Shown here: in pieces, positions 35,313 to 39,671 of the stretch
Layout of the letters: each line of letters begins with the position of its first letter
Numbering within the stretch: position 1 is the first letter of the stretch
Assembly (NCBI GenBank): GCA_963666055.2
Contig: CAXWPH010000003.1
Span: 64,001-128,000 of the forward strand
Direction: 5' to 3'
DNA: 64,000 nt
Source: Acidobacteriota bacterium
GTDB taxonomy: Bacteria; Acidobacteriota; UBA890; WLXD01
The notes under the pieces: generated by a model
Told to the model about the DNA's origin: nothing
Databases searched by the model: none
Seen by the model: only the letters and a program-made list of their open reading frames with translations
Program-made: the position numbers and the translations under genes

Positions 35313-36674
35313 ATGGGCTCGTTTGTCGACGACATCCTCGCTGACGTGAAGGCCACTAATCCAACTGAACCAGAGTTCCACCAGGCGGTTCACGAGGTGC
35401 TGGAGTCGCTCGAGCCGGTGCTCGAGCAGCGCCCGGAGTACCGACGCTACAAGATCGTCGAGCGCATGGTCGAGCCGGAGCGGGTGATCATGTTCCGCGT
35501 GCCGTGGGTCGATGACAGCGGCGCCGTGCAGGTGAATCGAGGCTTCCGGATCGAGATGAACAGCGCGATTGGCCCCTACAAGGGCGGCCTGCGCTTCCAT
35601 CCCTCGGTGAATCTCGGGATCCTCAAATTCCTCGCCTTCGAGCAGGTATTCAAGAACGCGCTCACGACGCTGCCGATGGGAGGAGGCAAGGGTGGCTCAG
35701 ACTTCGACCCTAAAGGTAAGAGCGACATCGAGGTGATGCGCTTCTGCCAGAGCTTCATGAGCGAGCTGTGCCGCCACATCGGACCCAACACCGACGTGCC
35801 CGCCGGAGACATCGGTGTCGGGGGACGCGAGATCGGGTTCCTTTTCGGGCAGTACAAGCGCCTTCGCAATGAATTCACCGGCGTGCTCACCGGCAAGGGT
35901 CTGAACTGGGGAGGCTCGCTGATTCGCCCGGAGGCCACCGGGTATGGATCGGTGTACTTCGCTGCGGAGATGGCGGCGACGCGCGGCGAGACGCTCGAGA
36001 ACAAGGTGTGCCTCGTTTCGGGGTCGGGGAACGTGGCGCAGTTCACCGCCGAGAAGATTCTGCAGCTCGGCGGTAAGGTCGTGACGCTCTCCGATTCCAG
36101 CGGCTCGATCTATGACGAGACGGGGATCGACGGCGAAAAGCTCGAGTTCGTCAAAGAGCTCAAGAACGCGCGTCGAGGCCGCATCAAGGAGTACGCCGAG
36201 AAGTATCCCGAGGCGGTTTACTCGGTGGAGAATCCCGACGACGATCACAATCCGCTCTGGGATCACCCAGCCGATTGCGCCTTCCCTAGTGCGACGCAGA
36301 ACGAGATCAACGGGAAGGACGCCGCAAACCTGCTGGCCGGCGGTGTCTGGCTAGTCTGCGAAGGTGCCAACATGCCGACCACCCTCGATGGGGTAGACGC
36401 GTTCATCAACGCCGGCATTCTGTTTGCTCCGGGCAAGGCCGCCAATGCCGGAGGGGTGGCCACTTCGGGGCTCGAGATGTCGCAGAACAGCATGCGCATA
36501 ATGTGGAGTCGAGACGAGGTCGACAGCAAGCTCCATGGCATTATGCGTGAGATCCACCGTGCCTGCCAGACTACATCGAAGCAGTTCGGGGTGCCCGGCA
36601 ACTACGTGCTGGGAGCCAATATCGCGGGCTTCATCAAGGTGGCGGACGCGATGATCGACCAGGGGGTCGTGTAG
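35313..36674 (+). CDS. gdhA: NADP-specific glutamate dehydrogenase
   Basis: [53 protein letters not shown]. Confidence 0.97.
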
Positions 36675-36701
36675 CGGAGACTCCCGATCTCAGGACTATC
36701 G

Positions 36702-39671
36702 ATGCGTCAGATCTTTCCTGACCACGAGCGGCGGCCCGGCGACGTGCGGGGTAGCTTTCAGGATCTGATGCAGTGGCGCGTCCGCCGCGTGCTGCTGGTT
36801 TCGAGCCTCTACGACTCGTTCATGTTCGCGGAGGATCGGCTCGCCGACGCTTTGGTGCTCGGCGAGTTCCTGGGGGTCGAGCTTTCTACCCTGCCTGAGA
36901 TCCACCGCGTCTCGACCGGATCGGAGGCGCTCGACGAGGTCAAGCGGCGGCCCAGCTACGACCTTGTGATCAGCTCAACGAGGGTGGGCGAGATGCACGC
37001 CCAGGAACTGGCTCGCGGTCTGCGCGAGGCGGGCATCGAGGTGCCGATCATCATGCTCGCCTACCACGAGCGCGAGCTCAAAGACTTCATCCGCGCTCAT
37101 GGCCTCTCCGATATCGATCGTGCCTTTCTGTTCCAGGGTGACATTCAGTTGTTCCTGGCGATCGTGAAGTGGGCCGAGGACCTGATGAACATCCAGCACG
37201 ACGTCGACACGATGGGCGTCCAGGTGATCCTCGTCATCGAGGACAACATTCGCTACTACTCGTACTTCCTGCCGGTGATCTACACAGCCGTGCTCCAGAA
37301 CACCGCCAGCCTGGTGCCGGACGGCATCAACCTGGCTCATAAGCTGCTGCGCGTGAAGGCGCGCCCCAAGATCGTGCTTGCCAGCGACTACGAGCACGCC
37401 TGGGACTATTTCCAGACCTACGAGGCCAACATCCTCGGGGTCATCTCCGACGTCGATTTCCCCAAGGACGGCGAGCTCTGTGCGGACGCCGGTGTGCAGT
37501 TCGCGCGCGAGGTGCTGCAACGCCACAGCGACGTGCCGGTCGTGCTCGACTCCGGACGGCGCGAGAACGCGGCGCTCGCTGAGGCGACCGGAACGTCGTT
37601 CCTTCACAAGTACTCGCCGACGCTTCTGCAGGAGCTGAGTCGGTTCATGGGACGGAACTTCGGGTTCGGACCCTTCGTCTTCCGCATGCCCGACGGCACC
37701 GAGGTCGCCCGCGCCCGCGACCTCCGACAGCTGGAGCGTGCCCTGCACACCGTGCCGGCCGAGAGCATCTGGAATCACGCCGAGCACAACGACTTCTCCA
37801 CCTGGCTCAAGGCACACACCGAGTTCGACATCGCCTACCGGTTCCGGCCGCTGAAGATCTCGCAGTTCGACGGGGCGGAGTCCCTGCGCCGCTTCGTGAT
37901 TGACGCGATCCGCACCCATCGCGAGGAACGCCGTCGAGGTGCGGTGGCCGATTTCGAGGCTGGCCGCTTCAATCCGGAGCGTAGCTTCGCCCGCATTGGT
38001 GGCGGGGCGCTGGGCGGCAAGGCTCGCGGTCTGGCGTTTGCGCGCCGGTTGTTGAAAGACTTCGGTGAGGATCGCTTCGAGAACGTGCGTCTCGCCGTAC
38101 CGCCGAGCGTCATCATCGGGACCGACGTTTTCGACGAGTTCCTCGACGCCAATGACCTGCGCGATTTCGCTCTGCGTGCCGAGGACGATGACGAGATCGA
38201 GGCGCGCTTCGAATCGGCGCCGTTCCCGCTCCGAATCCAGCGCGACCTGCGTTCGTATCTGGAGCTGGTCCACTACCCGTTGGCGATACGCTCGTCGAGC
38301 TTGCTCGAGGACGCCAAGTATCAGCCGTTCGCCGGTGTCTACCAGACCCTCATGATCGCCAACAATCACGCCGACGTCGACGTGCGGCTGCCGCGGCTGA
38401 TCCGGGCGGTAAAGCGCGTGTACGCTTCGACGTTCGCGCAGCGCGCCAAACGCTACGTGAGCGCCACGACATATCGGCTCGAGGGCGAGAAGATGGCCGT
38501 GATCGTACAACGAGTCGTCGGCGCCCTGCATGGGGAACGCTTCTATCCCGAGCTGGCCGGTGTCGCCCTGTCCCAAAACTTCTATCCGGTCCATCCGGTC
38601 AAGGCGGAGGACGGTCTCGCCGCGGTCGCGCTCGGGCTCGGCGAGGAGGTCGCCAGCGGCGGTATCTGTCTACGGTTCTCGCCACGCCACCCAGATCGCC
38701 TCCTGCAGATGTCCTCTGCCGGAGACGCGCTGCGCAACTCACAGCGTGAGTTCTTTGCCCTGTCTGTCGGCAAGACCGGTCGAGCGCGCCAGGGCGAGAT
38801 CGAACGCTACGACCTGAGCGTGGCCGAGGAAGACGGAACCCTCGCCGTCGTGGGGTCGACGTACTCACCGGAAAACGATGTCATCTATGACAGCTTGTCA
38901 CGCCCCGGCACGCGGCTGGTCACCTTCGCCCCGATCCTCAAGCATGGCCTGTTTCCGCTGGCACCGATCCTGAGCGATCTCCTCGAGCTGGGAACCTACG
39001 GAGCCGGGGGCCCAGTGGAGATCGAGTTTGCCGTCAACCTGTCGACACCGCCCGGTACGCCGAAGCAGTTCGGGTTCCTGCAGTTTCGACCGGTTGTGCC
39101 GGCGCTCGATCCCGGCGGTGCGGACATCAACGGCTACGAGTCCGGCCAGCTGGTCTGTCAGAGTGGCAGCGTTCTGGGATCCGGCAGGTTGGACGATATT
39201 CACGATCTCGTCGTCGTTGATTCCGATGCCTTCGAGCGCAGCCAGAGCCGCGTGGTGGCCGCGCAGATCGCTGCTTTCAACGCGCGGCTGTGCGCCGCCG
39301 AAACGAGCTACGTGCTCGTTGGCGTGGGGCGGTGGGGCTCTGCCGACCCGCTTCTCGGAATCCCCGTATCGTGGGACCAGATCTCGGGAGCGCGCGTCAT
39401 CGTCGAGGCCGGGTTCCGCGATATGGCGGTGAGCCCATCGCAGGGAACGCATTTCTTCCAGAACCTGGTGGCCAACGATGTCGGCTACTTCACGGTTAAT
39501 CCGGAGGCCGGCGAGGGCCTCGTGGACTGGGAGTGGCTACGCGGCTGTCCGGCAAAGGACGAGACCCCCTTCGTGCGCCACGTCCGACTCGACATGCCGG
39601 TTACGGTGCTGATGAATGGCACGCGCCATGAAGGCGTGATTCTGAAGCCAGGGGTGGCCCGGTCCACTTGA
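36702..39671 (+). CDS. Receiver-domain plus PEP/pyruvate-binding (PPDK/PPS ATP-grasp) protein of unknown function
   Basis: REC-like VIEDN...ISDVDFP...DSG...FLHK; LGGKARGL, AIRSSSLLED..QPFAG, KMAVIVQ, GLGE, EIEFA, LQFRP; C-terminal SQGTHFF. Confidence 0.88.
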   Translation: MRQIFPDHERRPGDVRGSFQDLMQWRVRRVLLVSSLYDSFMFAEDRLADALVLGEFLGVELSTLPEIHRVSTGSEALDEVKRRPSYDLVISSTRVGEMHAQELARGLREAGIEVPIIMLAYHERELKDFIRAHGLSDIDRAFLFQGDIQLFLAIVKWAEDLMNIQHDVDTMGVQVILVIEDNIRYYSYFLPVIYTAVLQNTASLVPDGINLAHKLLRVKARPKIVLASDYEHAWDYFQTYEANILGVISDVDFPKDGELCADAGVQFAREVLQRHSDVPVVLDSGRRENAALAEATGTSFLHKYSPTLLQELSRFMGRNFGFGPFVFRMPDGTEVARARDLRQLERALHTVPAESIWNHAEHNDFSTWLKAHTEFDIAYRFRPLKISQFDGAESLRRFVIDAIRTHREERRRGAVADFEAGRFNPERSFARIGGGALGGKARGLAFARRLLKDFGEDRFENVRLAVPPSVIIGTDVFDEFLDANDLRDFALRAEDDDEIEARFESAPFPLRIQRDLRSYLELVHYPLAIRSSSLLEDAKYQPFAGVYQTLMIANNHADVDVRLPRLIRAVKRVYASTFAQRAKRYVSATTYRLEGEKMAVIVQRVVGALHGERFYPELAGVALSQNFYPVHPVKAEDGLAAVALGLGEEVASGGICLRFSPRHPDRLLQMSSAGDALRNSQREFFALSVGKTGRARQGEIERYDLSVAEEDGTLAVVGSTYSPENDVIYDSLSRPGTRLVTFAPILKHGLFPLAPILSDLLELGTYGAGGPVEIEFAVNLSTPPGTPKQFGFLQFRPVVPALDPGGADINGYESGQLVCQSGSVLGSGRLDDIHDLVVVDSDAFERSQSRVVAAQIAAFNARLCAAETSYVLVGVGRWGSADPLLGIPVSWDQISGARVIVEAGFRDMAVSPSQGTHFFQNLVANDVGYFTVNPEAGEGLVDWEWLRGCPAKDETPFVRHVRLDMPVTVLMNGTRHEGVILKPGVARST

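Follow-up and report, generated by a model that had tools for sequence, protein, structure and literature searches.

The gdhA locus and its downstream gene

The window analyzed here is a stretch of 64,000 nucleotides from an Acidobacteriota bacterium (GenBank assembly GCA_963666055.2, contig CAXWPH010000003.1, positions 64,001 to 128,000 of the forward strand), and the system in question is a pair of genes within it: gdhA, encoding a glutamate dehydrogenase (GDH), and, on the same strand, an open reading frame (ORF) for a multidomain protein of 989 amino acids (aa). A gap of exactly 27 bp separates the gdhA stop codon from this ORF, and the coordinates of both genes agree with the arrangement given in an initial annotation made from the sequence alone (Table 1). 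GdhA scored 746 bits against PRK09414 (cut-off, 536), identifying it as a family-I GDH of the nicotinamide adenine dinucleotide phosphate (NADP) type.

Within the 989-aa protein, Pfam recognized PPDK_N at residues 437 to 798 (E = 1.7e-34), Response_reg in two stretches (E = 3.5e-8) and, below the cut-off, a weak DUF5752 match at residues 337 to 412 (E = 4e-4). An AlphaFold model contains five domains, namely, two receivers (REC1 and REC2), a small α/β domain, an ATP-grasp domain and a C-terminal α/β domain (the His domain), with a mean predicted local distance difference test score (pLDDT) of 79.5 and a predicted template modeling score (pTM) of 0.53; the arrangement of the domains relative to each other is not fixed. 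The initial annotation had named the receivers, the ATP-grasp and the His region, all of which were recovered, but it had missed the fifth, DUF5752-like domain between REC2 and the ATP-grasp. It had also described the N-terminal receiver as degenerate and the second as catalytically complete, and this is what we find: REC2 holds the acidic pair (E180 and D181, in VIEDN), the phospho-accepting Asp (D250, in ISD), the Ser/Thr (S284) and the Lys (K303) of a receiver, and REC1, in the query as in its relatives, has neither the acidic pair nor the phospho-Asp nor the Lys.

The ATP-grasp is intact and of the type found in pyruvate phosphate dikinase (PPDK) and phosphoenolpyruvate (PEP) synthase, and it is not accompanied by a pyruvate-binding barrel, again as first annotated. 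Its best fold matches in Foldseek were rifampicin phosphotransferase (RPH; E = 9.5e-13) and HpeI (E = 2.1e-9), and its motifs are in register with those of the ATP-grasp of PpsA from the same genome (hhalign, 97%, E = 1.5e-11), relative to which it has extra residues around 695 to 745 (gaps in PpsA). Mutagenesis of RPH-Lm identified Lys22 and Arg117 as necessary (PMC4844700; PDB 5hv1), and K440 and R530 are, judged by motif, their likely equivalents. The His domain is the last in the protein: no barrel was found in Pfam or in fold searches, and Pfam gave no match to a PEP-utilizer mobile domain, to a C-terminal barrel or to a HisKA/DHp or HATPase domain. No dedicated substrate-binding domain was found in the protein or as a conserved neighbor, unless GDH plays that part. 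A PDB sequence search with the whole protein gave no relative at E < 1e-3 (best match, E = 0.0056), and the His-domain profile gave chance matches only.

Table 1. Features of the gdhA locus (positions in the window)
Feature	Position	Strand	Basis
gdhA, family-I NADP-type glutamate dehydrogenase, 453 aa, predicted binding partner	35313..36674	+	PRK09414; complex prediction
GdhA interface span (predicted), mouth of the coenzyme cleft	35709..36179	+	Complex prediction; NADP contacts inferred by motif spacing
989-aa REC-REC-DUF5752-like-ATP-grasp-His protein (P0001)	36702..39671	+	ORF, Pfam, AlphaFold model
REC1, pseudo-receiver, about residues 27-160	36780..37181	+	Pfam, model, alignment
REC2, about residues 172-320; E180, D181, D250, S284, K303; helical insertion after helix 1	37215..37661	+	Model, alignment
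Codon of Asp250, candidate phospho-acceptor of REC2	37449..37451	+	Alignment, metagenome sample
DUF5752-like small domain, about residues 325-412, invariant W368	37674..37937	+	Weak Pfam match (below cut-off), ESM Atlas 0.81 (lead only)
PPDK/PEPS/RPH-type ATP-grasp, about residues 429-798; K440, R530, E775, Q794, R796	37986..39095	+	Pfam, fold match, PpsA alignment
ATP-grasp segment 665-747, largely inserted relative to PpsA; predicted GdhA docking site	38694..38942	+	PpsA alignment, model, complex prediction
C-terminal swivel-like His domain, about residues 815-983; GRWG, E902, SxGxHFF	39144..39650	+	Model, fold search, alignment
Codon of His917, candidate phospho-carrier	39450..39452	+	Alignment, paralogues, metagenome sample

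A putative swivel-like C-terminal domain

Folded alone, the His domain reached a pLDDT of 91 and a pTM of 0.90, with His917, which lies within the motif SQGTHFFQNLVANDVGYFTV, at the start of a helix between two strands. The His of swivel domains likewise starts a helix between strands. Among 48,161 representative PDB chains, six of the top seven structural matches carry phosphohistidine-type swivel domains, the best being RPH residues 756 to 867 (Z = 7.1, root mean square deviation [rmsd] 3.2, 112 residues aligned); the carrier domain of PPDK (Z = 6.9, rmsd 3.8, 118 aligned), the pyruvate kinase swivel (Z = 6.8), a DRTGG domain (6.8), maize PPDK (6.4) and enzyme I (6.1, 5.6) were also matched, and a second structural search gave similar results. 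Because the domain also follows a dikinase ATP-grasp, it is likely, on the strength of the model, that it has a phosphohistidine swivel-type fold.

Conservation and spread of the family

Relatives are abundant: 7565 of the 7999 scored 90%-identity clusters matched, and 1216 50%-identity clusters did so at E ≤ 1e-30. Conservation was counted in the best 150 of the 50%-identity representatives (32 to 52% identity), with those covering each position as the denominator. The ATP-grasp residues are nearly invariant (K440, 149/149; R530, 150/150; E775, 140/141; Q794, 135/135; R796, 127/134), and the REC2 set is widely kept (E180, 131/136; D181, 119/136; D250, 128/138; S284, 134/142; K303, 139/145). 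Conservation of the His and of the REC2 Asp, on which the initial annotation depended, was borne out by H917, retained in 136 of 139 diverse relatives, by D250 and by an independent metagenome sample in which both were invariant (74/74 and 72/72, respectively). This sample was collected with an alignment as the query; a single distant protein used as the query gave no match.

The family was seen in Acidobacteriota, Bacteroidota (including Parabacteroides and Phocaeicola), Ignavibacteria, Gemmatimonadota, Calditrichota, Myxococcota and candidate phyla, usually misnamed in databases, for instance as PEP-binding protein or as histidine kinase. In the ESM Atlas, the His domain matched only clusters that were unnamed or called "putative PEP synthase" (0.93). 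We found no description of the family in the literature searched, which excluded most subscription papers and all supplements, and the family is apparently uncharacterized, real and widespread. Three proteins (P0191, P0238 and P0213) carry one to five N-terminal repeats of a module of ~110 aa (W-Q-Y-P-E...EGPFLxEE) that is probably sensory and has no match in Pfam.

Genomic coupling to glutamate dehydrogenase

A GDH gene is found no more than 6 kb away in 56/80 GTDB loci, and in 43 of the 55 that have at least 2.5 kb on each flank. GDH is the sole broadly shared neighbor; next come NfnAB-like genes, in 16/80 loci. Across 151 genomes of the same phylum, scored with family-I GDH at E ≤ 1e-100 and with at most five candidates per genome for the long query, 60 had both proteins, 2 (both fragmented assemblies) had the full-length protein only, 10 had GdhA only and 79, including one unpublished genome (G047), had neither. 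Where both occurred, the genes were within 6 kb in 50 of the 60 genomes and within 600 bp in 41. In both Parabacteroides distasonis and Phocaeicola massiliensis, one gdh is divergent from the gene, which lies 3.5 to 4.1 kb downstream of a second. Among 30 GDH-less metagenome loci, no alternative neighbor recurred (one was shared by at most 5). The linkage to gdhA that the initial annotation had mentioned for other phyla is conserved in most GTDB loci and co-occurring genomes, but not in every clade.

The NfnAB-like genes form an NfnAB/SudAB-like pair (PRK06222 and TIGR01316) directly downstream of the gene for the 989-aa type (e.g., L034:9058-9969, L027:3529-5088 and L229:7974-10211), an arrangement also present at one unrelated metagenome locus, and possibly tie it to NADPH supply. 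A second gdhA-type gene in the genome that contains the window (59% identical; G000:C2:314000-315900, equivalent to L151:3524-5031, minus strand) is split over two frames, as a pseudogene or through an assembly indel, and has no dikinase-like paralogue beside it.

Paralogues without receivers

Two further types of the family gave no match to a REC domain. Type B is a bare core of ATP-grasp and His domain of about 580 to 600 aa. In type C, the N-terminal region is unrelated, and 5 of the 17 proteins scanned also carry a nucleotidyltransferase at the C terminus. SxGxHFF and the ATP-grasp motifs are kept in 7/7 type B and 19/20 type C proteins (26/27 in total), and the lone exception looks frameshifted. 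In the 14 genomes that have type C only, family-I GDH was not detected at the threshold used (0/14), and a GDH of the other class, about 30% identical to GdhA, adjoins the gene in 7 of the 11 loci fetched. Because paralogues devoid of receivers keep both the His and the GDH link, both appear to belong to the core, and the receivers to be one of several inputs.

The type C proteins with a C-terminal minimal nucleotidyltransferase (L134, L136, L005, L007 and L147) are encoded near GDH genes; in four of these five cases, the gene forms a tandem with one for a type B core-only protein. At two further loci (L140:88-6994 and L146:6140-8942), two or three GDH-family genes are grouped around one type C gene, which may point to GDH subunits that are heteromeric or regulatory.

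A predicted complex with GdhA

Prediction of a complex between the core (residues 431 to 981) and a GdhA monomer (residues 5 to 452), each with a 62-row alignment drawn from the same loci, passed with a score of 0.71, compared to 0.00 for the best of three controls. Of 157 solved complexes, 116 reach the mark used, as do 2 of 215 mismatched pairs, a calibration that is rough here since the alignments were custom-made. Contacts agreed between runs by at least 71%, and partner pLDDT was at least 89. On the side of the 989-aa protein, the predicted interface comprises residues 665 to 682, 704 to 706, 723 to 728, 736 to 738 and 747, within which stretches 670 to 674 and 722 to 735 have low pLDDT when the protein is folded alone; on the side of GdhA, it comprises residue 68 (D68) and residues 133 to 139, 168 to 172, 194 to 206, 240 and 285 to 289.

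In SpGdh1, Lys121, Gly155, Arg192 and Asn230 contact NADP (PMC12301742), and motif spacing suggests that K134, G168, R205 and N240 of GdhA are their counterparts. The ATP-grasp insert is thus predicted to lie across the NADP(H) cleft, where it would hinder entry of the coenzyme. A comparable arrangement is reported for the Bacillus subtilis GudB-GltAB complex, in which a GltA loop across the GudB cleft contacts N231 and blocks the coenzyme (bioRxiv 10.1101/2021.04.12.439528). N231 is likely the equivalent of N240 in GdhA, and there, as predicted here, a loop of the partner lies over the GDH cleft and touches the Rossmann Asn. Unlike here, the partner in that complex is a glutamate synthase, unrelated and with no phosphotransfer chemistry, and GudB is of the other GDH class.

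Comparison of 78 GdhAs linked to the family with 9 unlinked ones yielded 17 differing positions, with labels that clustered on a quick tree, and no clear phospho-acceptor was found among these positions. S137, which lies in the predicted interface, is invariant in the GDHs examined (78/78, 9/9 and 17/17) and hence does not discriminate. S262, the likely equivalent of the phosphorylated Ser252 of SpGdh1, was rejected as a universal acceptor, being Pro in 14 of the 78 linked GDHs. The coenzyme loops of the linked GDHs are of the SDS type in 64/78 and of the SGP type in 14/78.

Relation to known dikinases and receivers

Among the closest precedents is VadK (Rv1127c), which autophosphorylates on His422 without an acceptor domain and is proposed to regulate the metabolic enzymes with which it interacts (bioRxiv 10.1101/2025.10.30.685616). 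Like VadK, the 989-aa protein combines a PPDK-derived ATP-grasp with a His domain and lacks the pyruvate-binding role. VadK differs in its size (about 50 kDa), in acting on the methylcitrate cycle and in having no described receiver domains, whereas the features specific to the 989-aa protein are its highly diverged His domain, its two receivers, an insert in the ATP-grasp and a link to GDH. Against PRK05878, which we take to be the truncated-PPDK model covering VadK, it scored 12.9 bits (cut-off, 456).

RPH and HpeI supply the best fold match of the ATP-grasp and RPH that of the His domain, which is C-terminal in both RPH and the 989-aa protein. Compared with RPH-Lm (5hv1) and HpeHI (PMC12167813), the 989-aa protein differs in having receiver inputs and no substrate-binding domain between or beside the catalytic domains. 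With PEP synthase and PPDK it shares the ATP-grasp motifs and the position of a His domain, here probably swivel-like, after the ATP-grasp, but not the C-terminal PEP/pyruvate barrel, and its His motif is SxG[TS]HFF rather than GGxTSHAA. The tandem receivers match those of the PleD type (Foldseek, E = 5e-8), in which one intact and one degenerate receiver likewise precede an enzymatic output; here, the degenerate receiver comes first, which we take to be the reverse of PleD, and the output is a dikinase core instead of GGDEF. By the tests made, the protein is not a PEP synthase, a PPDK, an RPH/HpeHI-type enzyme or a classical histidine kinase.

Proposed function and alternatives

We lean toward the view that the 989-aa protein is a dikinase-derived, receiver-gated direct regulator of GDH that is likely inhibitory and possibly phosphorylates GDH. 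In the mechanism that we envisage, residues 665 to 747 of the ATP-grasp would dock on GdhA over K134, G168, R205 and N240 and so hinder NADP(H) entry, and ATP would give rise to phospho-His917, as the precedents of RPH, PPDK and VadK suggest. In the weakest step, docked GDH might replace the missing acceptor domain and take the phosphate. Within this proposal we slightly favor such phosphorylation because conservation of the transfer machinery is strict and a second modifying domain occurs in some paralogues; nearly as plausible is that binding alone inhibits GDH, with the state of the His or of the nucleotide setting the affinity. REC2 would be phosphorylated from outside and gate the activity, and REC1 may serve as a structural adaptor.

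Several observations weigh against direct regulation of GDH by this route. The genomes in the co-occurrence count are related and hence not independent; in the metagenome sample of distant clades, the link to GDH is looser (35/77 loci, 16/31 with full flanks); in Prevotella sp. F0039, no GDH lies within 7 kb of the gene; and in the loci examined, no cognate histidine kinase is a conserved neighbor. For the His domain, the swivel Z values are all below 8, a range in which common arrangements also match, Foldseek gave no match at E ≤ 1e-3 (the top match was PPDK, E = 9.5e-3) and hhalign against 25 PpsA/PPDK/PtsI swivel domains gave probabilities of 0.5% and 0.2%. Since this profile comparison failed, the His-to-His register is only indirect. 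The His motif that the initial annotation had aligned to the swivel motif is present, but the similarity of the two is undetectable at the sequence or profile level, and the assignment rests on the fold match and on the strand-loop-helix-strand position of the His; likewise, the Foldseek comparison that it had suggested was negative at the threshold above, and the domain is swivel-like, with modest confidence, by the other fold search. As for the complex, 7 of 44 blind neighbor pairs also pass the mark, the prediction used custom-made paired alignments and a GDH monomer, the interface positions on the side of the 989-aa protein are less conserved than the ATP-grasp region overall (0.43 versus 0.52), and only 1 of the 17 differing GdhA positions is in the interface (P206, 75/78 linked versus 2/9 unlinked). 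The His domain lies outside the confident contacts with GdhA, and phosphotransfer to GDH therefore lacks structural support. The passed complex prediction lends support to the receiver-gated kinase acting on GDH that the initial annotation had offered as one option.

A more ambitious version of direct regulation, which we regard as possible but doubtful, is that the family comprises receiver-gated protein dikinases that pass phosphate from ATP via a swivel His onto docked GDH, with a separate GDH class for each paralogue and an additional nucleotidyltransferase in some. If true, bacterial GDH would be subject to a covalent switch comparable to the control of glutamine synthetase by GlnE, and one present in gut Bacteroidales.

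We think it unlikely that the protein is instead a small-molecule dikinase for which GDH is the acceptor-binding subunit, as HpeH is for HpeI, with phospho-His917 phosphorylating a GDH-bound ligand such as the enol of 2-oxoglutarate, glutamate or NAD(H). The closest folds, RPH and HpeHI, do act on small molecules, the predicted docking site is the mouth of the GDH active site, and NfnAB-like NADPH-supply genes follow in some loci (16/80); yet the predicted insert covers the very residues that bind coenzyme, the linked GDHs carry both SDS-type and SGP-type loops, and receivers together with extra sensor-like inputs better fit a regulator. Likewise unlikely is another target at the carbon/nitrogen node, with GDH merely a co-regulated neighbor. 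This would suit the 42 of 77 distant-sample loci with no GDH in the DNA at hand (many of these contigs are short) and the Bacteroidales arrangement, in which one gdh is divergent from the gene and the other is kilobases away, but it sits poorly with the presence of GdhA in 60 of the 62 genomes that have the full-length type, with the complex prediction and with alternative neighbors shared by at most 5 of 30 GDH-less loci.

A self-contained phosphorelay from ATP to His917 to Asp250, with phospho-REC2 as the output, had been offered in the initial annotation and now seems quite unlikely as the core job of the protein. In its favor, the full-length type keeps His917 together with the complete REC2 catalytic set, and no partner histidine kinase is a conserved neighbor. 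The main argument against it is that types B and C keep the His motif in 26/27 cases without a REC match and often adjoin GDH; in addition, D250 is less conserved than H917 (128/138 versus 136/139), and the full-length model leaves the domain arrangement unfixed (pTM, 0.53). A feedback version of such an internal relay could coexist with direct regulation of GDH. Finally, an atypical PEP synthase or PPDK, as implied by the PPDK_N match and by names such as "PEP/pyruvate-binding domain-containing protein," is very improbable and had already been discounted in the initial annotation: the protein has no pyruvate-binding barrel, scores 40 bits against TIGR01418 (cut-off, 740) and shares its genome with a canonical PpsA of 802 aa. 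PtsI is also encoded elsewhere in the genome.

Neighboring DNA

Rfam gave no match over window positions 33000 to 42000. Only 66 bp separate the stop codon of the 989-aa ORF from thiC, where Rfam found no thiamine pyrophosphate riboswitch, and a run of ~18 G (39717 to 39734) directly precedes the thiC start (39738). Upstream of gdhA, a short N-terminal fragment resembling an epimerase/GDP-fucose synthase (33619 to 33942) overlaps an ORF in which just the C-terminal portion of a molybdopterin subunit of the formate-dehydrogenase-like kind is encoded. The arrangement of this region (33619 to 35033) resembles a deletion or a mis-join, and genomes of the same genus have 3 to 8 kb more DNA between the formate-dehydrogenase-like ORF and gdhA.

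Implications for control of GDH

The GDH of Bacteroides fragilis has been reported to undergo reversible inactivation. A 1996 study by Baggio and Morrison reportedly concerned trans-acting gene(s) downstream of gdhA in Bacteroides thetaiotaomicron, and the extra DNA, said to span about 2 kb, reportedly raised activity. We treat this as a lead only because ~2 kb would not hold a homologue located 3.5 to 4 kb away. The family may nevertheless bear on post-translational control of GDH in Bacteroides, and the predicted interface supplies specific residues for mutation. GDH joins carbon and nitrogen metabolism, and if the 989-aa protein is a direct GDH switch, nitrogen assimilation would have a further post-translational control dedicated to it, and dikinase chemistry would be put to a new use.

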